Numbered from the stretch's first letter, positions 4,793 to 55,272 are shown. The stretch: DNA of 64,000 bases from an uncultured Gammaproteobacteria bacterium (GCA_965230945.1 OZ246397.1:438284-502283); one strand, 5' to 3'. Notes: generated from the letters alone by a model not told the origin. A program made the numbers and translations.

Positions 4793-4864
4793 GGGCCTGT
4801 AGTTTAACGGTTAAAATGGGATTCTTATAAAGTCCAGTAGAAGGTTCGACTCCTTCCAGGCCCA
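4793..4864 (+). tRNA. tRNA with anticodon UAU (Ile, AUA-decoding type)
   Basis: Manual cloverleaf: acceptor GGGCCTG/CAGGCCC; D-arm gttt-aacggtta-aaat with G18G19; anticodon stem ggatt/agtcc with loop cTTATaa (U33 present); T-arm gaagg-TTCGACT-ccttc; discriminator A. Confidence 0.55.
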
Positions 4865-4941
4865 CTCTAGCTTTTTTAATTTTAGACTTTGGTGTTTTAA
4901 TAGTCTTGACTCTTTGGGTTTCTTTCGGATAAAATAAGCTT

Positions 4942-12652: not shown

Positions 12653-12926
12653 TGCGGGGTAGTGTACGGCAGCACGTGAGGCTCGTTTAAAATTGGGCCC
12701 TCTAATAGGTAACTATTGAGAGTGCACTCGGCTATATCGGTGAAACCCTACTGTAACTAGAGGGCAATACCGAGGGAACCCTAAAAATATTAGGGACTCT
12801 GTAGAGACTACACGCCGAGCATCCTGAATTTATTTAGGATGAAGATATAGTCCGACACTTTGAGTAATCGGAGCAAACAGTTTGCATAATCTCACAGACC
12901 GGGTTCAACTCCCGGCCCCGCAACCA
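12653..12926 (+). tRNA. tRNA(CAU) (elongator Met or Ile2 type) interrupted in the anticodon loop by a group I intron; exons 12653-12683 and 12885-12926
   Basis: Exons fold as acceptor tgcgggg/ccccgca, D-arm gtgt-acggca-gcac, anticodon stem tgagg/tctca with loop c-U33|CAUaa, T-arm ccggg-TTCAACT-cccgg, discriminator A and encoded CCA. The 5' exon ends in U and the intron ends in G. Confidence 0.6.
12684..12884 (+). ncRNA. Group I self-splicing intron (about 201 nt, ORF-less) inside tRNA(CAU)
   Basis: Contains group I R-like CTGTAGAGACTACACG and S-like GAAGATATAGTCCGAC elements. Boundaries are U|intron...G|exon. Size and host gene resemble the minimal Azoarcus-type tRNA intron. Confidence 0.6.
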
Positions 12927-12928
12927 AA

Positions 12929-13000
12929 GGTAGGGAGTAGACTGGTGTCTTGGAACGTTTCATAAGCGTTTTTTAGTGGGTTCGACTCCCACCCCTACCA
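12929..13000 (+). tRNA. tRNA with CAU anticodon (second copy; D-arm atypical)
   Basis: Acceptor ggtaggg/ccctacc; anticodon stem aacgt/gcgtt with loop ttCATaa; T-arm gtggg-TTCGACT-cccac; discriminator A. The D-arm is short, so this call is less secure. Confidence 0.45.
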
Positions 13001-13003
13001 CAA

Positions 13004-33050: not shown

Positions 33051-33998
33051 ATGGAAAAGAAAATTTATGATCTAATCATTATTGGAACAGGTCCGGCCGG
33101 ATTAACGGCTTCCATTTATGCTTCTCGTTATCGTCTTAATCATTTAGTAATTGGCAGTCAAGAAGGAGGAGCTTTAAGCTGGGCAGCCAAGATAGAGAAT
33201 TATCCTGGCTTTAAAGAGATCTCTGGTTTGGATTTAACTAATAAAATGATGGATCAAGTTAAGAGTTTAGGAGCTGAAGTTTTGATTCAAGAAGTAATAG
33301 GGGTAGAAAGAAAAGATAGCGTTTTTGAGGTAAAAATTTCTGGCGAGCAAACATTTCAGGCTAAAACTTTGATTGTTGCCTCAGGCACAGAAAGAAGGAA
33401 ACTTAATGTTCCTGGTGAGAGTAAGTACGTGGGTCGCGGCGTTTCTTATTGTACTACTTGTGATGGCGCCTTTTTTAAAGGTAAGGTGGTGGCGGTGGTA
33501 GGTGGTTCTAATGCAGCTGCTATGGGAGCTTATTACCTATCAAGTATTGCCAGCAAGGTTTACCTTATTTATCGCCGCCAGCCGTTAAGAGCTGAACCTA
33601 TTTGGCAGGAGAGAATTCAGGGCGAATCTAAGATCGAAATTATTTATGAAACTAATGTGACGGAAATTTTAGGCGACGAGGATAAAGTTAATGGCGTTAA
33701 ATTGGACAAACCCTATCAAGGTAGCCAGCAACTTTCCTTAGAGGGAATTTTTATTGAAATTGGCGGTATTCCAGGTACAGAGTTGGTCAAGTCTCTAGGG
33801 GTGGAGTTAGATGAAGGGGGTTTTATTAAGGTCTCTTCAGCCATGGAGACTAATATTGAGGGTCTTTTTGCCGCTGGTGATGTCGCCAACGCTACCGGGG
33901 AATTTCATCAAATTGTTACCGCCACTGCCGAAGGAGCTTTAGCTGCTAATAATCTTTATAAATATTTGAAAAGAGGTAAAAATGAAAATCGTCATTGA
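33051..33998 (+). CDS. trxB: Thioredoxin-disulfide reductase
   Basis: FAD-binding IIGTGPAG, redox-active CTTCDG, NAD(P) motif GGSNAA. Confidence 0.85.
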   Translation: MEKKIYDLIIIGTGPAGLTASIYASRYRLNHLVIGSQEGGALSWAAKIENYPGFKEISGLDLTNKMMDQVKSLGAEVLIQEVIGVERKDSVFEVKISGEQTFQAKTLIVASGTERRKLNVPGESKYVGRGVSYCTTCDGAFFKGKVVAVVGGSNAAAMGAYYLSSIASKVYLIYRRQPLRAEPIWQERIQGESKIEIIYETNVTEILGDEDKVNGVKLDKPYQGSQQLSLEGIFIEIGGIPGTELVKSLGVELDEGGFIKVSSAMETNIEGLFAAGDVANATGEFHQIVTATAEGALAANNLYKYLKRGKNENRH

Positions 33999-34188
33999 TA
34001 AAGGTTTGTGTATTGGTTGTGGAACCTGTGTAACAATCGCTCCTAAAAGTTTTAAGTTAAACAATGAGGGTAAGGCGGAGGTGATTGAACCTCAGGAAGA
34101 TGGAGAGTCTAAGGTCAAGGAAGCTATTGACAGCTGTCCTGTTTCTGCGATAAAATCGACCGATCAGGATGAAAAAGATGAAAGATAA
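33982..34188 (+). CDS. Small [4Fe-4S] ferredoxin
   Basis: CIGCGTC...C and a distal CP motif; 68 aa. Confidence 0.55.
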   Translation: MKIVIDKGLCIGCGTCVTIAPKSFKLNNEGKAEVIEPQEDGESKVKEAIDSCPVSAIKSTDQDEKDER

Positions 34189-34894
34189 AGGATTTAACTT
34201 AACAACGATAATTTTAGTAGTTGCTTTAGTAGGAGCCGCTTTTTTTGTGGGTAAATATTCAGAACGGTCTAATACTCCTACTAAAGAGGTAGGAGAAGAA
34301 GGAGTTACCCAAGGAGAACAAGAAAGACAAGAAGAGCAAATTATTTTAGGAGAAGAAGAAATGAAACTTATTGCCCAAGGAGGGGCTGCCGCCAAAGGTA
34401 ATAAAGATGCTCCGATAACTATTGTCGAGTTTTCTGAGTATGAATGTCCATTTTGTAAGAGTTATGTAGATGATACTTATAAAAAAATTATGGATGAATA
34501 TGGAGATAAAATATATTATGTTTTTCGAGATTATCCTTTACCCTTTCATTCTCATGCTCAAAACCTAGCTGAAGCGGCCAGATGCGCTGGTGATCAAGAT
34601 AAATATTGGTCCATGCATGATTTGCTTTTTGCCAAAAGAGACGAGTGGGTGGAAAAGAAAGATATTACCAATAGCCTGGCGGTTTACGCTAAAGAACTGG
34701 GGCTAAATACACAAAAGTTTAATTCTTGTTTATCTTCAAATAAATATACTCAAGCGGTAAAAGATGATCTAGCCTTAGGAGAGAAGGTGGGTGTTGGTGG
34801 AACGCCGAGTTTCTTTATCAATGGCTTCATGTTGGTAGGAGCTCAACCTTTTGAAAACTTCAAGACAGTTATTAACGAACAGTTAAATCAATAA
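34169..34894 (+). CDS. DsbA-like thiol:disulfide oxidoreductase (membrane-anchored)
   Basis: N-terminal TM; CPFC thioredoxin-fold active site. Confidence 0.7.
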   Translation: MKKMKDKGFNLTTIILVVALVGAAFFVGKYSERSNTPTKEVGEEGVTQGEQERQEEQIILGEEEMKLIAQGGAAAKGNKDAPITIVEFSEYECPFCKSYVDDTYKKIMDEYGDKIYYVFRDYPLPFHSHAQNLAEAARCAGDQDKYWSMHDLLFAKRDEWVEKKDITNSLAVYAKELGLNTQKFNSCLSSNKYTQAVKDDLALGEKVGVGGTPSFFINGFMLVGAQPFENFKTVINEQLNQ

Positions 34895-34911: not shown

Positions 34912-35610
34912 ATGCTTTTAGAATTGCTAAATAGTCAAGATCTGGGTTCTTTAGGACCAATTAATTTTTTAAAGCATGCTCTTTATTGGGCCGTAAATCA
35001 AGGTTTCCCTTTGGAATTATTAGTTTTAATTTTACTTTTACCCTTGGCTGTTTCCTTGGTAGTCTTGGTGAGATATCTTGTTGGTATCCAAGGTTTAGGT
35101 ATTTTTACTCCGGTAATGATGGCGGTGGCTTTTTTAAGTATTGGTCTTATTCCAGGTATTTTGCTGTTTTTAATTATTTTACTGATTGAAATTTTTGCTA
35201 TTTATCTTTTAAAACGGTTCAAAATTCATTTTTTGTCTAAAATGTCATTAGTTTTACTTATTATTTGTTTTTGTTTTTTTCCGCTTTTAGTTTTGTTTCA
35301 AAAGTTTAATTTTCAGGTATTATTTAATTCCTCATCAACTTCTATTTTAGTTTTAATTCTTTTGGGAGAAAACTTAGCCGAGGCTCAATTTAAAAAGCCG
35401 CCTAAAAAGATAACCATGGTTACAGCAGAAAACTTAGTTTTAGCGGCCTTATCTTTTGGGGTCTTAAACTCTTTCTTTTTGAAAAAAATGGTTATCTTTT
35501 ACCCAGAATTAATAGTTTTAATAGCCTTGTTTATCAACATTATAGTGGGTCGTTTTACTGGTTTACGTCTTTTAGAATATCGTCGTTTCAGAAGATTATT
35601 AAGGAAATAA
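34912..35610 (+). CDS. Polytopic (about 7TM) membrane protein, likely partner of the downstream ATP-grasp enzymes
   Basis: 232 aa made almost entirely of hydrophobic helices; 1-nt gap to the next gene. Confidence 0.4.
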   Translation: MLLELLNSQDLGSLGPINFLKHALYWAVNQGFPLELLVLILLLPLAVSLVVLVRYLVGIQGLGIFTPVMMAVAFLSIGLIPGILLFLIILLIEIFAIYLLKRFKIHFLSKMSLVLLIICFCFFPLLVLFQKFNFQVLFNSSSTSILVLILLGENLAEAQFKKPPKKITMVTAENLVLAALSFGVLNSFFLKKMVIFYPELIVLIALFINIIVGRFTGLRLLEYRRFRRLLRK

Positions 35611-36903
35611 ATGGCTAAAGCTTCTTCTATTCTAGGTCAAAACGCTCGTAATTATCTCTTTTTATCTTTGAACAAAAAAGAGGGCCGAAAAATTGCCAAT
35701 TCCAAGCTTTTAACGAAAAGAGTTTTAAAAAGGCATAATTTGCTAAGTCCGGCTGTTTTGGCTGTTTTTAGGACCGCTAAAAAGATTAATAATTTTGCCT
35801 GGGAAACTTTACCTGATAATTTTGTTTTAAAACCCTCAAAGGGATCTGGCGGAGAAGGAGTAGTTATTGTTAAAAAGAAGGCTAAATGGGCGGGGGAATG
35901 GTATTTAATGGATGGTTCCATTATTAATACTCAAGATTTAAAATTCCACGCTTTAGAAATTCTCTCTGGTAGATTTAGGCTTTATAATGTTCCTGGTGTA
36001 GCCTTTGTTGAGGAACGAATAAAGATTCAAAAAATTTTTAGCAGATATGTTTATCATGGAACGCCTGACATTAGAGTTTTGGTTTTTAATAAAGTTCCAG
36101 TGGCAGCTATGCTGCGTTTGCCAAGCAAAGAGTCTAAAGGTAAATCAAACCTTCATCAAGGAGCTATTGGAGCAGGTATTGATTTGGCTACTGGTATCAC
36201 TACCTTTGGCATTGTCAATGGCCTTTTTGTTAAATATATTCCCGAAACTAAAAGAAAGATTAATGGTCTAAAAGTCCCTCATTGGGATAGGATTCTAAAG
36301 CTGGCCGTAAAAGCTCAAGAAGTGGTTCCGTCTTTAGGCTTTTTGGGTGTTGATATCATTTTAGATAAGGAGAGAGGGCCAATGATTTTGGAGTTAAATG
36401 CCAGGCCTGGCTTAGAGATTCAGAATGCCAATTTATCTCCTTTAAAAAAGAGGTTGGAGAGGGTGGAAGGCTTAGAGGTAAAAGATGTTGATCATGGGGT
36501 TAAAATAGCCAAGGCTCTTTTTGCAGAAAGATTTGCTGATCGAGTTATGGCTGAAGAAGGGATAAAAATAGTTAATGTCTGGGAAAAGATAAAAGTTTTA
36601 TCTGAAGATAAGGAAAAGCATGAATTAAAAGCCAAAATTGATACTGGTGCTTGGCGGACATCAATTGATGAGGATTTAGCTGAAAGATTGGGCCTGCTTA
36701 CGCCAAGTAATATTTTATGGTCTAAGGTCTATAAAAGTGGTTTAGGCATACAGGAAAGAGAGGTTATTGGTCTAACTTTTTATTTAGCGGGCAGAAGAAT
36801 TAAGACTATTGCCAGTGTTGCCAAAAGGGCCGATTTAAGAGCCTCGATGATTATTGGCCGTCGAGACCTGAGAGACTTTTTAATTAAAGCCAGAAAGTTT
36901 TAA
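35611..36903 (+). CDS. ATP-grasp (alpha-L-glutamate-ligase-like) enzyme fused to a C-terminal retropepsin-like aspartyl protease domain
   Basis: N-terminal 300 aa are ATP-grasp-like (KPSKGSGGEGVVIV, ELNARPGLEIQN). The C-terminal 130 aa carry an aspartyl-protease motif KIDTGAW. Confidence 0.55.
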   Translation: MAKASSILGQNARNYLFLSLNKKEGRKIANSKLLTKRVLKRHNLLSPAVLAVFRTAKKINNFAWETLPDNFVLKPSKGSGGEGVVIVKKKAKWAGEWYLMDGSIINTQDLKFHALEILSGRFRLYNVPGVAFVEERIKIQKIFSRYVYHGTPDIRVLVFNKVPVAAMLRLPSKESKGKSNLHQGAIGAGIDLATGITTFGIVNGLFVKYIPETKRKINGLKVPHWDRILKLAVKAQEVVPSLGFLGVDIILDKERGPMILELNARPGLEIQNANLSPLKKRLERVEGLEVKDVDHGVKIAKALFAERFADRVMAEEGIKIVNVWEKIKVLSEDKEKHELKAKIDTGAWRTSIDEDLAERLGLLTPSNILWSKVYKSGLGIQEREVIGLTFYLAGRRIKTIASVAKRADLRASMIIGRRDLRDFLIKARKF

Positions 36904-36904
36904 A

Positions 36905-37828
36905 ATGGTTAAAATATTAATTCTCATTGGCGGTAGTGATCGCCCCATTAAACATTTTGCCCAAGTAGGGGAAAAGCTTGGCTGTCAGGTTAAGACGGCT
37001 TCTTTTAGTCGTTTGAACTATTCAACTTTAGATAAAGAATTTATCTTAAAAGTTGATGATACAGATATAGCTGATTTTGATATTGTTTATATCAGATTGG
37101 TAGGTAAACATTTTGAAGAGGTAGCTTTAGTTTCGCAATACGCTTATGAGAAAAATATTCCTTTGATCGACCGGATTTTTACCAAAAAGGGACTGACCCG
37201 TTTACCTATTCCCAAGTCAATTGAAGCTAAACTTTTGTTTCAAGCAGGTTTGTCGATACCTAGGACCTTTTTTGGTTCACTAAAACAAATAGAAAAAGAG
37301 GCACCTGAGCTTTTTGGTTTCCCCTTTGTTATTAAAAGCACCACCGGCAAACAAGGTCGTTCTGTTTGGTCACCAAGAAACGGCAAGGAATTGGAAAATT
37401 TGCTAATAGAACTTCGTAGATTGAAGAAAAGGAAAAGTAAGAGAGTTAGGGGTTCTTTTATTGCCCAGGAATTTGTCTGTGTCTCTCAAAGACATCGCTT
37501 GTTCGTTTTAGGTGGTAGGGTAGTTGGAGCCATAACCAGACCAACTCGCTGGCGAAAAAGATTTTTAGGTAAAGATGCTCCAGAAGGTAAAAGAGAAGCT
37601 TTGTTTGTTATTCCTAAAGAAGAAAAAGAAATGGCTTTACAAGCAACTTCTGCTTTAGGAGTAGATATTGCCGGAGTTGATCTTATTAGGGATGATAAGA
37701 CAGGCAAACTTTTTGTTTTGGAAGTTAATTCTGCTCCTCGTTGGGAATCAATTAGAAAAGACTGTCATCTGAATATTGAAGAGGAAATTATTAAGCTTTT
37801 AATCAAAAGAGCAAAAAAGAATAATTAG
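36905..37828 (+). CDS. RimK-like ATP-grasp ligase
   Basis: ATP-grasp layout with FVIKSTTGKQGRSV and LEVNSAP motifs; 307 aa; starts 2 nt after the previous stop. Confidence 0.65.
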   Translation: MVKILILIGGSDRPIKHFAQVGEKLGCQVKTASFSRLNYSTLDKEFILKVDDTDIADFDIVYIRLVGKHFEEVALVSQYAYEKNIPLIDRIFTKKGLTRLPIPKSIEAKLLFQAGLSIPRTFFGSLKQIEKEAPELFGFPFVIKSTTGKQGRSVWSPRNGKELENLLIELRRLKKRKSKRVRGSFIAQEFVCVSQRHRLFVLGGRVVGAITRPTRWRKRFLGKDAPEGKREALFVIPKEEKEMALQATSALGVDIAGVDLIRDDKTGKLFVLEVNSAPRWESIRKDCHLNIEEEIIKLLIKRAKKNN

Positions 37829-39076: not shown

Positions 39077-39104
39077 TTGACAATCAAGATGTAGTAGGAA
39101 TAAT

Positions 39105-39105
<1 letters not shown>
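39077..39105 (+). promoter_or_regulatory. Putative sigma70-type promoter for the 16S rRNA
   Basis: TTGACA (39077-39082), 16-nt spacer, AATAAT, ending at the mature 16S 5' end. Confidence 0.4.
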
Positions 39106-40559
<1,454 letters not shown>

Positions 40560-40694
40560 TGGAGAAAATTTTAAACACCCAAGGTTTCCAATTTTACTTG
40601 TAAAACTAAATTTGGGAATTCCTACTACATCTTGGTTGTTAAAAAAGACCCACTCTTAAGAGTGGGTCTTTCTATATCGAAGTATTTAAAAATA

Positions 40695-42872
40695 CTATCT
40701 TCTATATTGGTATTGTCTGTGTTTAGAGGCGTATTTGTAGGAATAGCGATCGTTGGATACTTTAATAACTTTGTCTCGATTTTGATTGAAGGACTTAGGT
40801 AGAGGTAGGGTATAGGCAAAAAAGGGTCGAGAAGTTAAGTTATCGACGGCGAGTTTGAGAACAATCTGGAAGTTGGAAAGACCTACTAAATTCTTCTGAG
40901 TAAAGATACTTCCAAATTCTTTTTCTAAGATATAGGCATCTTCAGCGCCGACGATAAAAGAGATTAAAGTGCCGGCGTTGCCAAAAATAGCTTTCTGAAC
41001 CGGTTCATCAATTTGGGCAATATATTGATTAGTCAGGCAAAGGTTTAATCGATATTTTCTAGCTTCAGATAAGATTTTAATAAAAGAGTCAGTAGCAAAG
41101 TTCTGAAATTCATCAACATACAAATAGAAATCTCTGCGCTTTTCTTCAGGCATATGGACTCTGCTCATAGCCGCTAGTTGCAATTTACTGATAATCATGG
41201 CTCCTAAAAGAGCCGCATTATCCTCACCTAATTTTCCCTGAGAGAGGTTGAGAATTAAAATTTTACCTTCATTCATAATTTTTTCAAAATCAACTGTTGA
41301 GTGCGGCTGACCAATAATATCTCTAATTGAGGTTGAGGAGACAAACTGACCAACTTTGTTTAAAATAGGGGCGATGGCTTCCTGTTGAAGGCGGTCAGGC
41401 ATTCTTTCAAATTCTTTAAGCCAGAAATTCCTTAAGACTGGATCATGGAGGTTTCCCACTATTCTTTGGCGAAATTTCTTATCAGTTAATATTCTGGGGA
41501 TGTCAACCAATGTACTTCCAGGAGTTTTAACCAAAGTAAGCAAGGTATTACGGAGGATATGTTCCAGCCTGGGACCCCAGGAAAAAGAATAAAGTTTATG
41601 GAAGATAGAGATAATACCTGAGGCAATTAGCTCTCCCTGGGAAGGGTCTTTAACCTCTAAGATATTAATAGAAAAAGGAAAGTCTTTATTAGACGGGTCG
41701 AGATAACAGACTTCGTTGATGCGATGAGAGGGAATGTAATTGAGAAGAATCTCAGAAAGATCACCATGAGGATCAATTACCGCCAATCCACGCTTTTTCT
41801 TCATGTCATCAATGGCCATATTAGCGATCAAAGTTGATTTACCAGTACCTGTCTTGCCGATAACATATATGTGGCGGCGACGATCTTTTTGTTTAATGCC
41901 GAAATTGGTTAGTCTGTTTTTGAATTCAGTTTTGGCAAAAAAATTGATTTCTTGCTTTTGTTCTTCAGTAAGATTAATAGCTGCTGGCAGATTTTCTGGA
42001 GCCTCAGTTAATACTTGTCTTCCCCAAGAAATATTAGGGATCTTGGTTTGATCACTGGGCAGGTGCCATAAGGTAGCTAATTCTGAAATGGTTAATACTT
42101 GGTATTTGGGAATAGATTCAGGCGATCTTTTAAATAAAGACTGAATAGATTTCTTTTTTCTTAAGATGGATGGTTTTTTAAAGCCAAGACTGTTGCCATC
42201 ACCTTTAGTAAAGATGTCTAAACTGCCGACAATAGATTTTAAAAGGCTAGGATTGGAGGCAGCTACTCTGATACCTACAATTAGCCCTTGTTCCTGGATT
42301 TTTTGTTTAATGGCCGCTTCTCCAGGTAGGGGACGACGTTCATTTTCACCAGCCTTAATACCTTCATCAATAGCCTTTTGGCCTTGTTTCTGCCAGCCAG
42401 AAGGGGCTTTTTGGATAATAAATTGGATGATGCTTTTATCTTCTTCATTTCCTTTTGACATGACTGCTAAAAGATTGCTTAAAGGGTCAACATCAACAAA
42501 CTCTTTAAGAGTTTTTAAAGGGTAAAAGAAGCTCTTTTCTAAAATTAATTGGCCAAAATAAATTTTTTCTGGATTCCAATCTTGTAAATAATTGGTAATT
42601 TTATTTAAGACCGCCAAAGGATAAGCAGCTAGGATTTGGCTTTCAAAATAGGGAAGCAAAGATTTATCTAGAACGACGCAAAAATGAATTTGTTGCTGTT
42701 CACAAACAATCTCTAAAGTCAAAGATTCTGGTTTTTTACCTCTTAATTGCTCAAAAAAGCTAGGTAAAGAAAGAATTTTGGTGAATCCAGAAAACAAAGT
42801 ATGGGCATTTTCTGGAGTATACTCATTTTCCCTAGGAACCTTTATTTCTAAGATAACTTTTTCTTCAGGCAT
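40695..42872 (-). CDS. FtsK/HerA/VirD4(TraD/TraG)-like P-loop ATPase, paralog of 2421-4748, no N-terminal TM
   Basis: Walker A HIYVIGKTGTGKST and Walker B LYVDEFQNFAT; collinear similarity to the first copy in both the N-terminal and ATPase regions. Lies between 16S and tRNA-Ile on the opposite strand. Confidence 0.6.
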   Translation of the reverse strand: MPEEKVILEIKVPRENEYTPENAHTLFSGFTKILSLPSFFEQLRGKKPESLTLEIVCEQQQIHFCVVLDKSLLPYFESQILAAYPLAVLNKITNYLQDWNPEKIYFGQLILEKSFFYPLKTLKEFVDVDPLSNLLAVMSKGNEEDKSIIQFIIQKAPSGWQKQGQKAIDEGIKAGENERRPLPGEAAIKQKIQEQGLIVGIRVAASNPSLLKSIVGSLDIFTKGDGNSLGFKKPSILRKKKSIQSLFKRSPESIPKYQVLTISELATLWHLPSDQTKIPNISWGRQVLTEAPENLPAAINLTEEQKQEINFFAKTEFKNRLTNFGIKQKDRRRHIYVIGKTGTGKSTLIANMAIDDMKKKRGLAVIDPHGDLSEILLNYIPSHRINEVCYLDPSNKDFPFSINILEVKDPSQGELIASGIISIFHKLYSFSWGPRLEHILRNTLLTLVKTPGSTLVDIPRILTDKKFRQRIVGNLHDPVLRNFWLKEFERMPDRLQQEAIAPILNKVGQFVSSTSIRDIIGQPHSTVDFEKIMNEGKILILNLSQGKLGEDNAALLGAMIISKLQLAAMSRVHMPEEKRRDFYLYVDEFQNFATDSFIKILSEARKYRLNLCLTNQYIAQIDEPVQKAIFGNAGTLISFIVGAEDAYILEKEFGSIFTQKNLVGLSNFQIVLKLAVDNLTSRPFFAYTLPLPKSFNQNRDKVIKVSNDRYSYKYASKHRQYQYRR

Positions 42873-43009
42873 ATTCTTCTACTAAACTAGTTTTTATTAT
42901 AGCAGATTTTCTATTAATATGAATAGTTTTAACTTCTGTCCTATATCTTAGGTCAGGGTTAGTTTTATGCTGTTATTTTACCTAAATTTATGTTAAAATT
43001 TCCTTGCTT

Positions 43010-43081
43010 TGGGTGGTTGGCTCAGCGGTAGAGCGCTTCTCTGATAAAGAAGAGGTCATAGGTTCGACTCCTATACCACCC
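43010..43081 (+). tRNA. tRNA-Ile (anticodon GAU)
   Basis: Acceptor gggtggt/accaccc; D-arm gctc-agcggta-gagc; anticodon loop cUGAUaa; T-arm atagg-TTCGACT-cctat. Confidence 0.8.
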
Positions 43082-43090
43082 ACTTGTTTA

Positions 43091-43119
43091 TTGACAGTTA
43101 GTTTAGTTTTTGTTAAAAT
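43091..43119 (+). promoter_or_regulatory. Near-consensus sigma70-type promoter inside the rRNA spacer (TTGACA-17-TAAAAT)
   Basis: TTGACA at 43091-43096, 17-nt spacer, TAAAAT at 43114-43119. Confidence 0.4.
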
Positions 43120-43230
43120 TGTTAACAGTAGTCAAGCTACTAAATTTATGAGAAGTCGTCAAACTAGATATTTTTCTTTACGAGACCTATTTTGTGGTGG
43201 AACTTGATTGACTTTTTAGTAATTTTAGGA

Positions 43231-43253
43231 AGCTGGCTCGGCCAGCTTTTTTA
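43231..43253 (+). terminator. Hairpin + T-run (terminator-like) directly upstream of tRNA-Ala
   Basis: AGCTGGCtcgGCCAGCT followed by TTTTTT. Confidence 0.35.
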
Positions 43254-43259
43254 GTTTAA

Positions 43260-43332
43260 GGGCTCATAGCTCAGTTGGAAGAGCATCCGCCTTGCACGCG
43301 GAAGGCCAGGAGTTCGAATCTCCTTGAGTCCA
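43260..43332 (+). tRNA. tRNA-Ala (anticodon UGC)
   Basis: Acceptor gggctca/tgagtcc with G3:U70; anticodon loop cUUGCac; T-arm aggag-TTCGAAT-ctcct. Confidence 0.8.
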
Positions 43333-44467
43333 CTTGCTCTTTGAAAAGTGGATAGAAAATCCGTCAGACGAAAGAAAACGGCGAAAAGCTACTTTTATTA
43401 AAGCAAGCAATGGATGTCTTGGCTGTTTAAGCCGATGAAGGACGTTGCCGTCAACGATAGCGTCGGGGAGGTGACAAGCAACCTTTGATCCGGCGGTTTC
43501 CGAATGGGGTAACCCAGCGCCTAGCGTTACATCTTGTTTTTCAAGATGGGGGAACCATCCGAACTGAAACATCTAAGTAGGATGAGGAAAAGAGAACAAT
43601 TGTTATTCTGTTAGTAGCGGTGAGCGAAAACGGAACAGCCTAAACCTTCTTTAGGAAGGGGTTGCGGGGCAAAAAACATAGGATTTGTTGAGGATAGAGG
43701 AATACTCCGGAATGGGTAGCCAGAGAAAGTGAAAGCCTTGTACTCGAAATCCAAAACAACCTTATTTTGTTCCCAAGTACCACGGAACACGTGTAATTCT
43801 GTGGGAAGCTACCAGGGACCACCTGGTAAGGCTAAATACTTAAACAGACCGATAGTGAACCAGTACCGTGAGGGAAAGATGAAAAGTCCCTGTAATAGGG
43901 AGTGAAATAGAACCTGAAATTGTTTGCTAACAAGCAGTCAGAGTCTTAATTTTTAAGATGATGACGTGCCTATTGAAGAATGAACCGGTGAGTATTCGTC
44001 TAATTGTCAGTTTAAGCTATTTTGTAGCGAAGGCGCAGGGAAACCGAGTCTGAATAGGGCGTAGGTCTTTGACCAGCGATTAGACGGATGACCCGAAACC
44101 GGGCGAGCTAACCATGAGCAGGGTGAAGCTTATCGAAAGATGAGTGGAGGCCCGCACCAGTGTCTGGTTCAAAAGGCTTGGATGACTTGTGGTTAGGGGT
44201 AATATGCTAATCGAGCCCGGAGATAGCTGGTTCTCCTCGAAATATATTTAGGTATAGCGGTGTTGTGCGTTTTGGTGGGGTAGAGCACTGAATGATGGCA
44301 GGACAGCAATGTCTTGTCATCAATCAAACTCCGAATACGCCAAAAAACATACACTAGTCAGTCTTGCCGGGCTAAGCTGGTGAGGCAAAAGGGAAACAAC
44401 CCAGACTCTCATCTAAGGTCTCTAAATCTTACTTAAGTGTTTAAAGGAGGTGAAGTTCCTAAAACAC

Positions 44468-44523
<56 letters not shown>

Positions 44524-45310
44524 ACAAGGGATTTTGCGCCGCAAATTCAGGAGGCTAAAGTAAGTACCGAAGATGGAGCTGCGTTTAACTTCGGTTAAAC
44601 GTGGGGTAGAGGAGCGTCGATATGGCAGTGAAGCCATTTTGTAAGGAATGGTGGAGTAGTATCGAGTGAGAATGCCGGTATGAGTAGCAAAATTCCAGTG
44701 AGAATCTGGAACGCCGAATGTCCAAGGTTTCCCACGTAATGTTTGTCAGCGTGGGGTTAGTCGACCCTAACCCGAGGCCGATTGGCGTAGGGGATGGATA
44801 GCAGGTTTATATTCCTGCACCTTAATTATTTCGTTATTAACTAGGGAGGGACGGGATTTGATAGATAAGGTGTCTTATTGATTTGACATTTAAACAACGA
44901 ATCAGTTCTAATAGGCAAATCCGTTAGAGCGACGATGAGTTGAATGAAAAGGCCAAAGGCAACGGCGGCCAATCTTATTGCGTTAAGTCTCCAAGAAAAG
45001 CTTCGTGGTGAGGAATAATTAGGATCGTACCGTAAACCGAAACAGGTGGACTGGACGAGTAGTCTAAGGCGGACGGGAGAAGAGAGTTTAAGGAACTCGG
45101 CAAAACAACTGGACGTAACATTTGGAGATGTCCTACCCTGTTTATCAGGGTCGCAGCGAAAGATTGCTTACCGACTGTTTAACTAAAACACAGGTCTCTG
45201 CAAAGGCGAAAGCCAAAGTATAGGGGCTGAGGCCTGCCCAGTGCCGGAAGGTTAAGAGGACCTCCTTTATGGAGAGAATTGAAGCCCCGGTAAACGGCAG
45301 CAGTAACTAT

Positions 45311-45580
45311 GAATAGATTGTAGTTGTAAAAGTCGACTATATGCTGGAACATCCGTACCGTCGTTAAAGAACACGAACGGTTGCAGTATCTGACGCTACC
45401 ATATTTTTATATGGTGACAATGCGATCAGTGCGGACAATCAGCAGGAAAGGCTTAGGTTTTTCTAAGAATCCTCAGAGACTATACGTCGACCTCTTAAAA
45501 TAGAAATTAAGAGATGATATAGTCCGACCTCATGGGCGACCATGAGACTCCGTATTCAATCGGAGCTTAGTAACAAAGTG
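45311..45580 (+). ncRNA. ORF-less group I intron in 23S (helix 69-71 region, near E. coli position 1917-1923)
   Basis: Splits GTAACTAT / AACTGTTCTACGGTAGCG. R element CCTCAGAGACTATACG and S element AGATGATATAGTCCGAC are present. The 5' exon ends in U and the intron ends in G. Confidence 0.6.
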
Positions 45581-46160
45581 AACTGTTCTACGGTAGCGAA
45601 ACTCCTTGTCGTGTAAGTTACGACCCGCATGAAAGGCGTAACGAGTAAGCAACTGTCTTAAACTCTTTCCCGGCGAAATTGAAATGGCTGTGAAGATGCG
45701 GCCTAATTACTGCAGGACAAAAAGACCCCGTGAAGCTTTACTACAACTTGGCACTGAAAAATATACATGAATTGTTTAGAATAGGTGGGAGTCTTCGGAC
45801 GTCAGTGAAATACCACTCGTTTGTTTATGTTTTTCTTACCAAGATATGCTGGAAACGCATATTGGGACAGTGTCTGGTGGGTAGTTTGACTGGGGCAGTC
45901 GCTTGCTCAAGAGTAACGCAAGCGTACAAAGGTCAGCTTAGCACGTATGGAAATCGTGCTGGACGTATAAAGGCAGAAGCTGGCTTGACTGTGAGACTGA
46001 CAGGTCGAGCAGGAACGAAAGTTGGTCTTAGTGATCCTCGAATCCGAAGTGGTTTCGGATCGAGCTTAACGAATAAAAGCTACTCCGGGGATAACAGGTT
46101 AGTCGCGCCCGAGAGTTCATATCGACGGCGCGGTTCGATACCTCGATGTCGGCTCAGCGT

Positions 46161-46192
<32 letters not shown>

Positions 46193-46299
46193 TCTGTTCG
46201 CCCATTAAAACGCTACGTGAGCTGGGTTCAGAACGTCGTAAGACAGTTCGGTCTCTATCCGCAGTAATCGTTGGATATTTGAGGGAATCTGACCACAGT

Positions 46300-47055
46300 A
46301 GGAAATGCTGCCTTGGTGAGTAATTACCAAGGTCACTCTTGCTAAAATTGGTGAAATCCTCTAAAATGATATCGTTGGTCCTTTTGATTTAGAGGACCAC
46401 ACCAAGGGAAGGTTAGAATTTTTCTCTATGACAGATCAAGAAAAAGCATATATAGCAGGATTTTTAGACGGGGATGGAAGTATTATGCTTCAATTAAAGC
46501 CTAGAAAATTAGTAAGTTATGGCTTTAGAGTAAAAACAACGCTTTGTTTCTACCAAGATACACGTCATAAAAAGGGTTTATCTTGGATTAGGGGTAAATT
46601 AGGTATAGGATATCTTTCTCAAAGGAAAGATAGGATTACCGAATTAAGAATTGAAGGTTATAAAGCTGTTAAATCAGTTTTGAATGAATTAGCCCCCTTT
46701 ATTATCTTTAAAAAGAAACAAGTCAAAATTATTCTAAAGGCAATTTTAATAATGGAAAATAACCCTAATCCTAAGGAATTTCTGAAAGTTTGTAAACTTT
46801 CAGATGATATTTCTGCTATTAATTATGCAACTGTACGAAAAAAATATAATTATGTTTTCGTACGTAAGAAGTTTATAGAGAAAGGTTTGATACCCCCTTA
46901 ACGACTGATCCTGATTCACTTTTGTGAAGAAGGAGAGATAGGAGTTACTTCTACTTTATTAGTAGAAAATCTATGGCTCTTATAATAAGGCAAGCCCCCA
47001 GTTTTTTCTGGGGTGAAGGTATAGTCTAACCCTTTAGTAATAAGGGAATAAGTTG
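46300..47055 (+). mobile_element. Intron (probably group I) in the 23S sarcin-ricin loop region, carrying a LAGLIDADG homing endonuclease gene
   Basis: Splits ...CACAGU / ACGAGAGGACC. The intron ends in G. An S-like element AGGTATAGTCTAA lies near the 3' end. Confidence 0.65.
46428..46901 (+). CDS. LAGLIDADG homing endonuclease (intron-encoded)
   Basis: YIAGFLDGDGS is a LAGLIDADG motif; 157 aa single-motif form; entirely inside the 23S intron. Confidence 0.8.
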   Translation: MTDQEKAYIAGFLDGDGSIMLQLKPRKLVSYGFRVKTTLCFYQDTRHKKGLSWIRGKLGIGYLSQRKDRITELRIEGYKAVKSVLNELAPFIIFKKKQVKIILKAILIMENNPNPKEFLKVCKLSDDISAINYATVRKKYNYVFVRKKFIEKGLIPP

Positions 47056-47363
47056 ACGAGAGGACCTGGTTGGAGGAATCCCTGGTGTGCCAGTTGTTCC
47101 TATCAAGGGCAACGCTGGGTAGCTACATTCCTTAAGGATAACCGCTGAAGGCATCTTAAGCGGGAAGCCTCACCCAAGATTAGATATCCTTTCTCCTTCG
47201 GGAGATGAAGATCGGTTGTAGACTACAACCTTTATAGACTGGAAGTGTAAGTAGAGTAATCTATTTAGCTAACCAGAACTAATGATCGAAGAAAGTAACT
47301 TTTTTGCCTTTTCTTTTGCCTAACGGTGATCTATCCACTTTTCAAGGAGCAAATTTGAAAATT

Positions 47364-47486
47364 TGCCTTGGTGATTTGAGCGTCGTCGAACTACTCTTTC
47401 CCATTCCGAACAGGATCGTAAAAGGCGACAGCGGGGACGATAGTTAACTCGCAAGGGTTTGCGAAAATACCTCATTGCCAGGGCAT
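47364..47486 (+). rRNA. rrf: 5S ribosomal RNA
   Basis: TTGCCTTGGTG...CCCATTCCGAACAGG...ATTGCCAGGGCAT matches the 5S termini and loop C. Confidence 0.7.
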
Positions 47487-53250: not shown

Positions 53251-55272
53251 TTATTCTTCTAGTTCAGCTTCGGGAGTAGCTTCCTCAATAATTTCGATTT
53301 CACCAGCATCAGTAGATTCGCTTACCTCGGGACCAGATTGTTCCGGTAATTCAATGGGTGGGGAAATAATAGGAGATGGAAGAACTTCCGGTTCAGTAAG
53401 TTGAGTTGTACCTTCAGTAGTTTCTGTTATTTCTTCTTCAGGAAGATTTTTAGCTAGTTCTTCAAGTTCTGTTCTTGCTTTTTGATAATCAACTGAATCG
53501 GTAGGAATTAAATTAGTGACGATGAGCATCATCTCATGGGCCTTTTTAAAATCTTCCTTTTCTTTGTAGGCAGCAGAGAGATTATAATAGCCATTGGCAA
53601 AGTTGGCTTTATCGTCAATAGACTTTTGAAACCATAAAATAGCCTCATCATATTCACCTAGAGCATAATAAACACCACCTAGTCCTAATTTTAATTCAGG
53701 GTTGGTGGGGTCTAAATTAATTGTTTGACGGTAGGATGTTAGCGTCCATTGTTCAGCCCCTTCAGCAAAATTGATTAATTGACGGTAGGTTTGAGATAGA
53801 TTTTCCCAATTGATCACTTTGTTTTGGTTTAAAGAAACGGCTACTTTAGCTTCACTAATTGATTGCTGGATTAAGGTGGTAATAGTTTGTCGGTCCTGAT
53901 CAGAAAGATCTGGCCGACCGGCAATACTGTCTGCTAAGGCAAGACTGGTTTGAGAGTAGGAGATGCGGTAAACATCATTATAAGGATTTAACATAATAGC
54001 TTTAAGCTGGTTATTATAGGCGTTAGTTCCATCATTTAAGGCGATATTAACCAGCGATTGTCTAAAACGAACTTCGGCAGCATAGACTCTACCGGCAAAG
54101 TAAAAAGAAACTCCGCTAAAAAGGACAATTAAAGAGAGGATAATCACAGGTAGTATTTTTGATCTTTCTACATATTGCCCTTTTGGTAAACCGATTGCAG
54201 CTGAAGCAACCAAGATATAGAAGATTAAAAGAGTAAGAAAATTGACTGGTAGAAAGAGGAAGATCAAAGAAACGGTAAAGATAGTCAAAAAGTAAGCAGA
54301 ATATTTTTTGGCCTTAATAATTTTACCCATTAACCAAACCCAGGCTGCAAAACCCAAAATACCCACGGTGGTTATAAGATTAAAATAGAAATTTCCTGAG
54401 GTACCAAAACGAAATAGCCAAAGATTAGTTAAATTATAGCTAGCTGGTCGGAATCGAGAAAAAGCGTCTAGAAAGTTTTCCGGTCCAACACCTAAAAGGA
54501 AAGTTTTACCATTTTTAAAAGCTTCAATCACGATTGCCCATGAGGTTGAATACGGTAAAAGAAGAGGTTTGCTAACAACTAAAATTTGCCATAAAGAAAT
54601 ACCTAGACCACCAAGGATGATTATGATAGAGATGGGGTGGTGGATTAGAGAGAGCAAACTTTCTCTTTTAACTTTCTTAATAATAGAAATAAAACGGGTT
54701 AAAGCTAAGATTAAGACAGCAATTAGAAAAGTGGTTAAAACCAATGGGGTTCCGGCTGGCGTCCAAGATTTTAATCTAAGGAAAGCAACACGGCTGCCTT
54801 CAGGAATAAAAGCTTCACCCAAACCAATAAATTGAAAGATGGCGGTTAAAGAAAGAACAACAGCACCAACAATGAAACTGTTTAAAAGCTTAATTCTATT
54901 TTCCCTACTAACGTTGTTGGTAATTATAAAATAGAGAAAGGTGAGGGTAATTACTGTTCCTGTTCCGTTAGGCAACCAAAGAGTTTCCCATTTATTAGGA
55001 GAAACGATAATTGTTGAAAGAATGAAAGCAACGGCAATAGCCAAAATAGGTAAATCAAAGGAAGTTTTTTTAATACTTAATTCTTTAGTAACAACCATTT
55101 TAACAGCCCACAGAATTAATAGGATAAAGACAGAGGAGAAAAGAAGAGCATTTTTATTAAACTCGTAGAACTCTGAAGTGAAAGGCAAGAAAAATAGTGG
55201 CGTTACTCCAATAAAAATGATTAAAAACCAAAGAATGATTTTATTAATAAATAGACTTCTTTTTTCTGCCAT
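53251..55272 (-). CDS. Polytopic membrane protein, O-antigen ligase (Wzy_C)-like, with C-terminal TPR repeats and acidic tail
   Basis: About 12 TM segments over 400 aa, then TPR-like repeats (LGGVYYALGEYDEAILWFQKSI...). The C-terminal 80 aa are Glu/Thr/Pro-rich. Confidence 0.45.
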   Translation of the reverse strand: MAEKRSLFINKIILWFLIIFIGVTPLFFLPFTSEFYEFNKNALLFSSVFILLILWAVKMVVTKELSIKKTSFDLPILAIAVAFILSTIIVSPNKWETLWLPNGTGTVITLTFLYFIITNNVSRENRIKLLNSFIVGAVVLSLTAIFQFIGLGEAFIPEGSRVAFLRLKSWTPAGTPLVLTTFLIAVLILALTRFISIIKKVKRESLLSLIHHPISIIIILGGLGISLWQILVVSKPLLLPYSTSWAIVIEAFKNGKTFLLGVGPENFLDAFSRFRPASYNLTNLWLFRFGTSGNFYFNLITTVGILGFAAWVWLMGKIIKAKKYSAYFLTIFTVSLIFLFLPVNFLTLLIFYILVASAAIGLPKGQYVERSKILPVIILSLIVLFSGVSFYFAGRVYAAEVRFRQSLVNIALNDGTNAYNNQLKAIMLNPYNDVYRISYSQTSLALADSIAGRPDLSDQDRQTITTLIQQSISEAKVAVSLNQNKVINWENLSQTYRQLINFAEGAEQWTLTSYRQTINLDPTNPELKLGLGGVYYALGEYDEAILWFQKSIDDKANFANGYYNLSAAYKEKEDFKKAHEMMLIVTNLIPTDSVDYQKARTELEELAKNLPEEEITETTEGTTQLTEPEVLPSPIISPPIELPEQSGPEVSESTDAGEIEIIEEATPEAELEE

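Follow-up and report, generated by a model that had tools for sequence, protein, structure and literature searches.

A bare seven-transmembrane protein, an RloC-type ATP-grasp ligase fused to a retropepsin-like protease and a RimK-like ligase: a compact relative of the Rlo system

The stretch of DNA examined here (OZ246397.1:438284-502283, 64,000 nt, hereafter the window) contains a cassette of three open reading frames (ORFs), all on the plus strand at positions 34912-37828 counted from the start of the window. They encode a seven-transmembrane (7TM) protein (ORF1), an ATP-grasp ligase whose C-terminus is a retropepsin-like aspartic protease domain (ORF2), and a second, RimK-like ATP-grasp ligase (ORF3) (Table 1). 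The closest known system is rloABC of Pseudomonas aeruginosa and Pseudomonas fluorescens (Lormand et al., mBio 2025, PMC12239564), followed by RimK/RimB. The main peculiarity of the cassette, absent from the initial annotation of this locus, is that the fusion places the protease inside the cell, RloA being a secreted enzyme. The cassette is a stripped-down and rearranged Rlo system, that is, a real and informative variant, and not a new kind of system or principle. It should be noted that the names RloB and RloC are also used in the phage-defence literature for restriction-linked ORFs (an anticodon nuclease and its partners), which are unrelated.

Table 1. Genes, domains and motifs of the cassette (positions in the window).
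Feature	Position	Strand	Size or residues	Basis or remark
ORF1, 7TM protein	34912..35610	+	232 aa	
Cytosolic tail motif GRFTGLRLLEYRRF, directly after TM7 of ORF1	35548..35589	+		conservation, translation
ORF2, ATP-grasp-retropepsin fusion	35611..36903	+	430 aa	
RloC-type ATP-grasp ligase domain of ORF2	35611..36495	+	residues 1-295	PF14397, TIGR02291
Helical linker between ligase and protease	36496..36564	+	residues about 296-318	predicted local distance difference test score (pLDDT) <50 at 307-315
Retropepsin-like aspartic peptidase domain of ORF2	36565..36903	+	residues about 319-430	RloA/RimB/PF05618 type, short flap
Catalytic DTGA	36640..36651	+	D344-A347, preceded by K342	translation
IIGRRD, second retropepsin signature	36850..36867	+		translation; hydrophobic-hydrophobic-G-R-D/N
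ORF3, RimK/MptN/LysX-like ligase	36905..37828	+	307 aa	

The cassette and its three products

The ORF calls bear out the initial description of three tightly packed, co-directional genes. The gaps of 1 and 2 nt given there are differences between coordinates, and the real intergenic gaps are 0 and 1 nt: the TAA stop codon of ORF1 abuts the ATG of ORF2, which has an AAGGA sequence about 8 nt 5' of it, and a single nucleotide separates the ORF2 stop from the ORF3 ATG. Upstream, a spacer of 17 nt follows a DsbA-like gene, and downstream a spacer of 42 nt precedes mnmA. The cassette was found in identical form on two independent assemblies, a JGI contig of 97 kb and a Logan contig of 12 kb. The exact protein sequences are also recorded on an NCBI contig of 615 kb. 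A scan for promoters and terminators gave nothing beyond shuffled expectation.

The C-terminal domain of ORF2, first noticed for the KIDTGAW sequence encoded at 36634-36654, turned out to be retropepsin-like, as had been suggested. With the window sequence alone, its matches were all sub-threshold, namely PF13650 (0.003), PF05618 (0.0035) and RloA2 (0.016). A single-sequence search of the PDB with ORF2 missed the protease domain, for which a family profile was required. A search with the domain only against 1.84 billion representative proteins, in turn, gave 369 relatives, and many close ORF2 homologues carry the PF05618 annotation. The profile built from 51 of these relatives matched RloA2 of P. 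aeruginosa (9g59, 1.8e-12), RloA of P. fluorescens (9g58, 2e-9) and Lpg0085 of Legionella (2pma, 2e-7), with the Ddi1, ApRick and human T-lymphotropic virus (HTLV) proteases next; 9G58 and 9G59 are the RloA structures reported by Lormand et al. (PMC12239564). The fold was checked with AlphaFold2 (AF2), as the initial annotation had proposed. A fold search with the whole ORF2 model returned ATP-grasp matches only, and the protease was seen with a separate model of the domain (pLDDT 94.3, predicted template modelling score 0.85), whose predicted fold is that of a retropepsin. Foldseek placed RloA2, Lpg0085 and RloA at the top for this model, and then the RVP domain of Ddi1 and the proteases of foamy virus and HIV-1 (E from 2e-6 to 1e-4).

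The residues expected of such an enzyme are present. D344, G346 and A347 are invariant in 61 ORF2 homologues; G416 is also invariant, and D419 nearly so. In an alignment including proteobacterial RloA, K342, D344, R383 and R406 share columns with the residues of the RloA K-x-D, R-P-V and D-R-S motifs. By offset and spacing, they correspond to K46, D48, R114 and R137 of P. aeruginosa RloA, the distance of 23 residues between the two arginines being identical, and conservation across the family is 84% or more at all four positions. ORF2 therefore keeps the catalytic DTG of RloA as well as its poly-Glu-binding Lys and Arg residues. In RloA, D48, R114 and R137 are needed for cleavage of poly-glutamate (poly-E) in vitro and for complementation in vivo (PMC12239564), and the ORF2 domain probably cuts poly-glutamate as well. 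The domain found in the candidate phyla radiation (CPR) is compact, with about 35 residues from DTGA to the arginine of the R-P-V motif compared with about 60 in RloA, and hence has a shorter flap. Neither a signal peptide nor a transmembrane (TM) segment was found before the protease domain of ORF2. Because the domain is fused to a ligase and has no signal peptide, it is predicted to reside on the cytoplasmic side of the membrane.

The ligase domain of ORF2 matches PF14397 (ATPgrasp_ST) at 6e-61 and TIGR02291 ("alpha-L-glutamate ligase-like") at 3e-77, and is 40% identical to RloC of Pseudomonas lini over 288 aa, nearly its whole length (BLASTP, E=3e-70). Its scores against other models are weaker (rimK family, TIGR00768, 2e-17; Ddl, 2e-7; cyanophycin synthetase, CphA, 1e-3), and Foldseek with the AF2 model of ORF2 (pLDDT 85) listed RimK first, then ArgX/LysX, and then CphA and Ddl. 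The domain is thus RimK-like and does not group with Ddl or CphA, in agreement with the initial annotation. K74, D248, E261 and N263, all invariant in the 61 homologues, fit the usual nucleotide and Mg2+ ligands of ATP-grasp enzymes. The N-terminus of ORF2 starts deep in its relatives, with residue 20 aligning at position 90 of MptN and residue 14 at position 118 of GshB; the ligase therefore lacks the N-terminal pre-ATP-grasp domain of RimK, GshB and Ddl. The linker that connects ligase and protease is probably flexible, judging from the model.

ORF1 matches PF14402 (7TM_transglut) at 4e-22 in Pfam, and covers only positions 297-507 of the 508-position NCBIfam model of RloB. In a BLASTP comparison with P. 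lini RloB (L080, 4433-5968), its residues 18-232 align with residues 297-508 at 27% identity. PF14400, the inactive transglutaminase, gave no match in ORF1, while it matches P. lini RloB at 1e-46. Judging from these alignments, ORF1 is the C-terminal 7TM half of RloB, with neither a transglutaminase nor any other ectodomain. Of the 7TM inactive-transglutaminase partner initially proposed, the 7TM family that usually accompanies these ligases has stood, and the transglutaminase has not. Hydropathy and the positive-inside rule indicate about seven helices, with the short N-terminus facing outwards and the basic C-terminal tail in the cytosol. Among 76 homologous 7TM domains, the most conserved positions of the membrane part are P44, R54, G58, G63, P67, G82, the membrane-embedded E153, and P198, and the tail pattern G213-x3-G217-x-R219-L-x-E222-x2-R225-F226 is invariant. 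We infer that this tail is a candidate docking site for the ATP-grasp partner; in a single-chain relative (P0265, described below), the equivalent tail leads straight into an ATP-grasp domain.

ORF3 matches PF08443 (RimK) at 7e-23 (81.7, above the Pfam cut-off of 21), and its best PDB sequence match is RimK (2.6e-10), followed by LysX/ArgX, by CphA and by Ddl (9e-4), as expected for the RimK-like third gene of the initial annotation. It scores 3e-30 against TIGR00768 (105.5 bits, under the RimK family cut-off of 143.4), and 51.5 bits against PRK10446, the equivalog of the ribosomal protein S6 ligase, whose cut-off is 331. It also matches MptN (2.8e-25, residues 10-299) and LysX (8e-23); like ORF2, the protein does not group with Ddl (4e-3) or CphA (7.5e-9). 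ORF3 is a complete three-domain ligase of the RimK superfamily. Its similarity to ORF2 is marginal (E=0.04), and therefore the two are not recent paralogues.

The combination of these proteins could also be read as a cluster for a graspetide or another ribosomally synthesized and post-translationally modified peptide (RiPP), in which the ATP-grasp, protease and membrane proteins would act as macrocyclase, leader peptidase and exporter. CPR bacteria have been reported to harbour graspetide clusters (PMC8939145), and ORF3 gives faint matches to MvdC-type maturases (E=0.004-0.06). These matches, however, are many orders of magnitude weaker than those to RimK, MptN and LysX; the spacers of 17, 0, 1 and 42 nt are too short to accommodate a precursor gene; small ORFs of acidic or Thr/Ser-rich composition were not found; and ORF2 is clearly a homologue of RloC. 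A RiPP cluster can hence be given hardly any credence.

Related loci in other genomes

Species representatives of GTDB were scanned for related loci, and the ORFs called in the 80 loci obtained were searched with the four modules of the window and with a retropepsin hidden Markov model; 78 of the loci were informative. In essentially all of the approximately 80 loci, which come from many phyla, the 7TM gene lies directly 5' of the ATPgrasp_ST gene, and for this reason the arrangement of the cassette is not due to chance.

The ligase-retropepsin fusion is present in 28 of the 78 informative loci, which have a GC content of 0.29-0.55 and belong to CPR lineages, namely Woesebacteria, Levybacteria, Kaiserbacteria, Peregrinibacteria, Gracilibacteria, Altimarinota and several metagenome-assembled genomes (MAGs) labelled otherwise. 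The 7TM gene accompanying the fusion encodes only 214-336 aa, apart from PKD-bearing forms of 512-522 aa. The remaining 50 loci, with an unfused ligase of about 320 aa and an RloB of about 510 aa, are mostly from Gammaproteobacteria, but also from Thermodesulfobacteriota, Bdellovibrionota, Verrucomicrobiales and Rubrobacteraceae. In 35 of these 50, a retropepsin gene (160-220 aa, with a hydrophobic N-terminus) is located directly 5' of the 7TM gene, whereas in the 28 fused loci no separate gene for a retropepsin lies within 4 kb. As the fused and the separate protease are mutually exclusive, the fused domain would be the functional equivalent of RloA. In a neighbour-joining tree of the ligase domain, rooted at the midpoint, all 29 fused sequences are set apart from all 50 unfused ones, so that cassette-type and Rlo-type ligases form separate clades. 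A RimK-like gene follows the fusion on its 3' side in 11 of the 29 fused loci, with clear ORF3 orthologues in four.

Several variants of the module were observed in the survey. In Peregrinibacteria, Gracilibacteria and Altimarinota, proteins of about 790-800 aa have the order ligase-retropepsin-MATCAP, the last being a metallopeptidase domain similar to tubulin tyrosine carboxypeptidase (PF08014; P0194, L026 4817-7222, L028 5947-8319, L029 5989-8361 and L069 5986-8349). In L026 and L069, a PKD domain replaces the transglutaminase as the ectodomain of the 7TM partner of this fusion. In other proteins, a TM anchor and a retropepsin domain precede the 7TM domain (L037, 4799-5956 and 6865-7380; P0212, 384 aa). 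P0157 (487 aa) has two tandem retropepsin domains before the 7TM domain, which raises the question of a pepsin-like pseudo-dimer. P0265 (657 aa) combines TM anchor, retropepsin, 7TM and ATP-grasp domains in a single chain; its eight TM helices separate protease and ligase by the membrane, an arrangement shared with RloABC. In P0265, P0212, P0157 and the L037 forms, an extracytoplasmic protease is to be expected, the reverse of the situation in the window. Finally, a retropepsin of the same subfamily is found at the C-terminus of a class I lysyl-tRNA synthetase (PF01921) in P0177 (539 aa).

Host and genomic surroundings

The window has a GC content of about 37%, a 16S rRNA gene unlinked from the 23S and group I introns, and the best named homologues of the cassette proteins are from Shapirobacteria, Woesebacteria and Microgenomates. 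On these grounds, we infer that the host is a bacterium of CPR/Patescibacteria type, Microgenomates-like and with a small genome.

The rRNA genes are dispersed over 39103-47483. The 16S gene (39103-40558) is followed by a minus-strand gene (40695-42872) for a protein of 725 aa with DUF8128, DUF87 and TrwB-type ATPase domains, and then by tRNA-Ile, tRNA-Ala and the 23S gene (43387-46327), with the 5S about 1 kb past the 23S. One intron (45301-45546) lies within the 23S gene, and another (12674-12874) just 5' of a tRNA-Met gene (12929-13001). Besides the usual tRNA-Ile(GAT) at 43011, ARAGORN predicted a tRNA-Ile with anticodon TAT at 4793-4865. A CPR-type fused cassette, with a GC content of 0.32-0.49 and CPR-like neighbours, is also present in MAGs titled "uncultured Gammaproteobacteria/Pseudomonadales bacterium" (third-party annotation assemblies; L003, L004, L007, L008, L010-L015, L017, L023, L025 and L027), and these taxonomic labels look unreliable.

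Adjacency to a thioredoxin/DsbA redox cluster had initially been taken as a hint of an envelope function. Thioredoxin, thioredoxin reductase (TrxR), ferredoxin or DsbA neighbours, however, recur in only 4 of the 29 fused loci. The hint is thus unsupported, and a functional link between the cassette and these genes was rejected. In the DsbA-like protein encoded at 34169-34894, which is membrane-anchored and presumably extracytoplasmic, the TM anchor is followed by a Glu-rich linker (EVGEEGVTQGEQERQEEQIILGEEEM), and no run of 8 Glu occurs. A DsbA-like gene adjoins the cassette in 4 of the 29 fused loci. The only other recurring neighbours of fused loci are the RimK-like genes mentioned above (11 loci) and, on the opposite strand, the genes of ribosomal proteins L10, L7/L12 and L1 (5-7 Woesebacteria-like loci). 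The latter lie 3' of the cassette in L005-L009 (e.g. L005 10025-10555, L006 7890-8345 and L005 12063-12773), and their proximity, which deserves mention since RimK-type ligases modify a ribosomal protein, is probably a matter of lineage synteny. None of the three cassette proteins matched the anti-phage defence models of PADLOC, and within the reach of these models a defence system is excluded.

A RimK/RimB-type system acting on ribosomal protein S6 (RpsF) has also to be considered. According to this explanation, ORF3 would polyglutamylate the C-terminus of RpsF and the ORF2 retropepsin would remove the Glu residues, the 7TM protein and the RloC-like part being accessory regulators. A cytoplasmic retropepsin encoded directly 5' of a RimK-like gene does mirror the rimB-rimK order, RimK gives the best PDB matches of ORF3, and polyglutamylated RpsF is cleaved in vitro by both RimB and RloA (PMC12239564, PMC11957791). 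On the other hand, ORF3 falls under the cut-offs of both PRK10446 and the RimK subfamily, with MptN and LysX scoring about as well; the RimK-like gene accompanies only the 11 of 29 fused loci, while the 7TM partner is always there; and the window contains no rpsF. Taken together, these data make S6 modification improbable as the function of the cassette.

Relation to known systems and proposed function

The families PF14397, PF14402, PF14400 and PF05618 are said to stem from a comparative-genomic prediction made by Iyer, Abhiman, Burroughs and Aravind in 2009 (Mol Biosyst 5:1636). It reportedly foresaw the adding and trimming of peptide tags by ATP-grasp amidoligases with pepsin-like peptidase and 7TM-transglutaminase partners, and contained no biochemistry. 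A search of the papers in the library used found no description of an RloC-retropepsin fusion or of its occurrence in CPR bacteria, although the 2009 prediction may mention the fusion. The initial annotation had called these systems experimentally almost uncharacterised, which is outdated: genetics, structures and in vitro cleavage of poly-Glu are available for rloABC (PMC12239564) and for RimB, RimK and RimBK (Little et al., JBC 2025, PMC11957791). Glu runs of 8 residues or more are substrates of both RloA and RimB (PMC12239564, PMC11957791). RimK is bound by RimB, which stimulates it to make poly-alpha-Glu, and proteolytic activity has been demonstrated for RimBK, a hybrid from Desulfotalea psychrophila (PMC11957791). 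The defects of a triple RloA-protease mutant are suppressed by the loss of rloB or rloC, which implies that RloB and RloC make a product that is harmful unless processed by RloA.

The cassette and rloABC have in common a PF14402 7TM domain, an ATPgrasp_ST/TIGR02291 ligase and a retropepsin of RloA/PF05618 type, and in both the 7TM gene is directly 5' of the ligase gene. RloA is a stand-alone periplasmic enzyme with a signal peptide, encoded 5' of rloB, whereas the protease of the cassette is the C-terminus of the ligase and has a shorter flap. Moreover, ORF1 is devoid of the ectodomain of RloB, an inactive transglutaminase (PF14400) of about 300 aa, the cassette contains an additional RimK-like ligase, and its host is of CPR type and not a gammaproteobacterium. 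RimK/RimB (RimABK) and RimBK resemble the cassette in that they join an ATP-grasp alpha-L-glutamate ligase of the cytoplasm, as a partner or within one chain, to a poly-Glu-cutting retropepsin. In RimBK, however, the retropepsin is N-terminal to a true RimK, while in ORF2 it is C-terminal to an RloC-type ligase devoid of the pre-ATP-grasp domain; the Rim systems have no 7TM partner; and ORF3, although RimK-like, remains under the RimK family cut-offs. In eukaryotes, the tubulin tyrosine ligase/MATCAP cycle, in which an ATP-grasp enzyme adds C-terminal residues and a peptidase removes them, provides an analogy and not a case of membership. MATCAP follows the retropepsin in the Peregrinibacteria and Gracilibacteria relatives of ORF2, and is absent from the protein of the window.

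The reading that we favour, to which we assign a probability of roughly 0.6, is a cytoplasmic cycle docked at the membrane, in which glutamate is ligated and the product then shortened by an endoprotease. The invariant cytosolic tail of ORF1 would anchor the ORF2 ligase to the membrane, where the ligase would use ATP to add alpha-linked Glu to a carboxylate acceptor; the product would be poly-alpha-Glu in free form or a substrate extended by a Glu tail. Oligomerization of the ligase would pair two tethered retropepsin domains into the obligate dimer, which would then cut acidic stretches, limit chain length and perhaps stimulate turnover as RimB does for RimK. ORF3 may prime or extend the same chain, or modify a second acceptor, and ORF1 would couple the cycle to the membrane, either as an exporter of the product or as an envelope sensor that gates the cycle. 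Synthesis and trimming would thus both take place on the cytoplasmic side, unlike in the Rlo system of Pseudomonas. A physical coupling of the three modules is suggested by the universal 7TM-ligase order, the stop-to-start junction of ORF1 and ORF2, the single chain of P0265 and the invariant tail. The theme of adding and trimming tails is, in turn, suggested by the fact that in Peregrinibacteria and Gracilibacteria a MATCAP carboxypeptidase domain joins the same fusion.

Several points weigh against this reading. The protease domain of the window protein scores 17.7 against PF05618, less than the Pfam threshold of 27, and the ligase reaches 259.6 bits against TIGR02291, under the cut-off of 314.2. 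ORF3-like genes are absent from most fused loci. The peptidases of RloA, P0212 and P0265 are outside the cell, so that a cycle confined to the cytoplasm is not the general rule of the module. The 64-kb window contains neither rpsF, nor a gene for a poly-E protein, nor any Glu-rich small ORF, the last having been suggested initially as neighbours to be looked for; a mildly acidic C-terminus was seen in only two window ORFs (33982-34188 and 53251-55272), which do not look like substrates. To our knowledge, no activity has been measured for any RloC-type ligase, that of Pseudomonas included, and the reading is uncertain mostly in its chemistry (the amino acid added and the acceptor) and in the part played by the 7TM protein. 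Retropepsin dimerization is, moreover, an expectation drawn from the mechanism of the family, and the tail as a docking site and the tasks of ORF3 are likewise postulated.

Alternatively, the cassette might modify a precursor of an envelope component. The substrate of the ligases would be a precursor linked to lipid, glycan or peptidoglycan, or else a peptide bound for export; once amino acids had been added to it, the retropepsin would proofread or release it before export and the 7TM protein would translocate it. The product would then be an envelope component and not a poly-Glu tail in the cytoplasm. The name of the PF14397 family, "sugar-transfer associated ATP-grasp", is in line with this, and so are the defects of Pseudomonas rlo mutants in cell shape, beta-lactam sensitivity and hypo-osmotic tolerance, and the altered production of membrane vesicles upon disruption of the RloB homologue of Shewanella. 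An extracytoplasmic step is also indicated by the variable ectodomains of the 7TM proteins (transglutaminase-like, PKD or retropepsin), and a conserved Glu, E153, is embedded in the membrane. However, no glycosyltransferase or cell-wall gene is conserved beside the fused loci, ORF1 does not have any ectodomain, the peptidase is predicted to be cytoplasmic here, and the 7TM family has no known transport activity. Considering all this, we regard modification of envelope precursors as unlikely.

The membrane-docked glutamate cycle could also be taken one step further, into what we consider a speculative and rather doubtful proposal. The cassette would then be an inward-facing minimal Rlo, in which one polypeptide builds and cuts an acidic chain of poly-alpha-glutamate where a bare 7TM protein opens to the cytosol, the chain being threaded through this protein, and the form seen here would be the ancestral and simplest one. 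The argument is that the same retropepsin subfamily is outside the membrane in other lineages, and therefore that the chain passes through the 7TM protein. If true, this would be a previously unrecognised pathway for the export or anchoring of a peptide polymer.

The fusion of an RloC-type ligase with a retropepsin across a whole clade is natural "Rosetta-stone" evidence, and implies that both must act on the same molecule. The cassette shows that the transglutaminase ectodomain is dispensable and that the protease can work on the cytoplasmic side, and its 7TM protein offers, in the strictly invariant cytosolic tail, a concrete candidate for the interface between the modules. It also extends the known range of the module well past Proteobacteria. 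A three-gene form, in a genome with very few candidate substrates, is an easier place to find the acceptor and the product than Pseudomonas with its three redundant proteases, and in this way the fused cassette constrains the question of what Rlo systems make.

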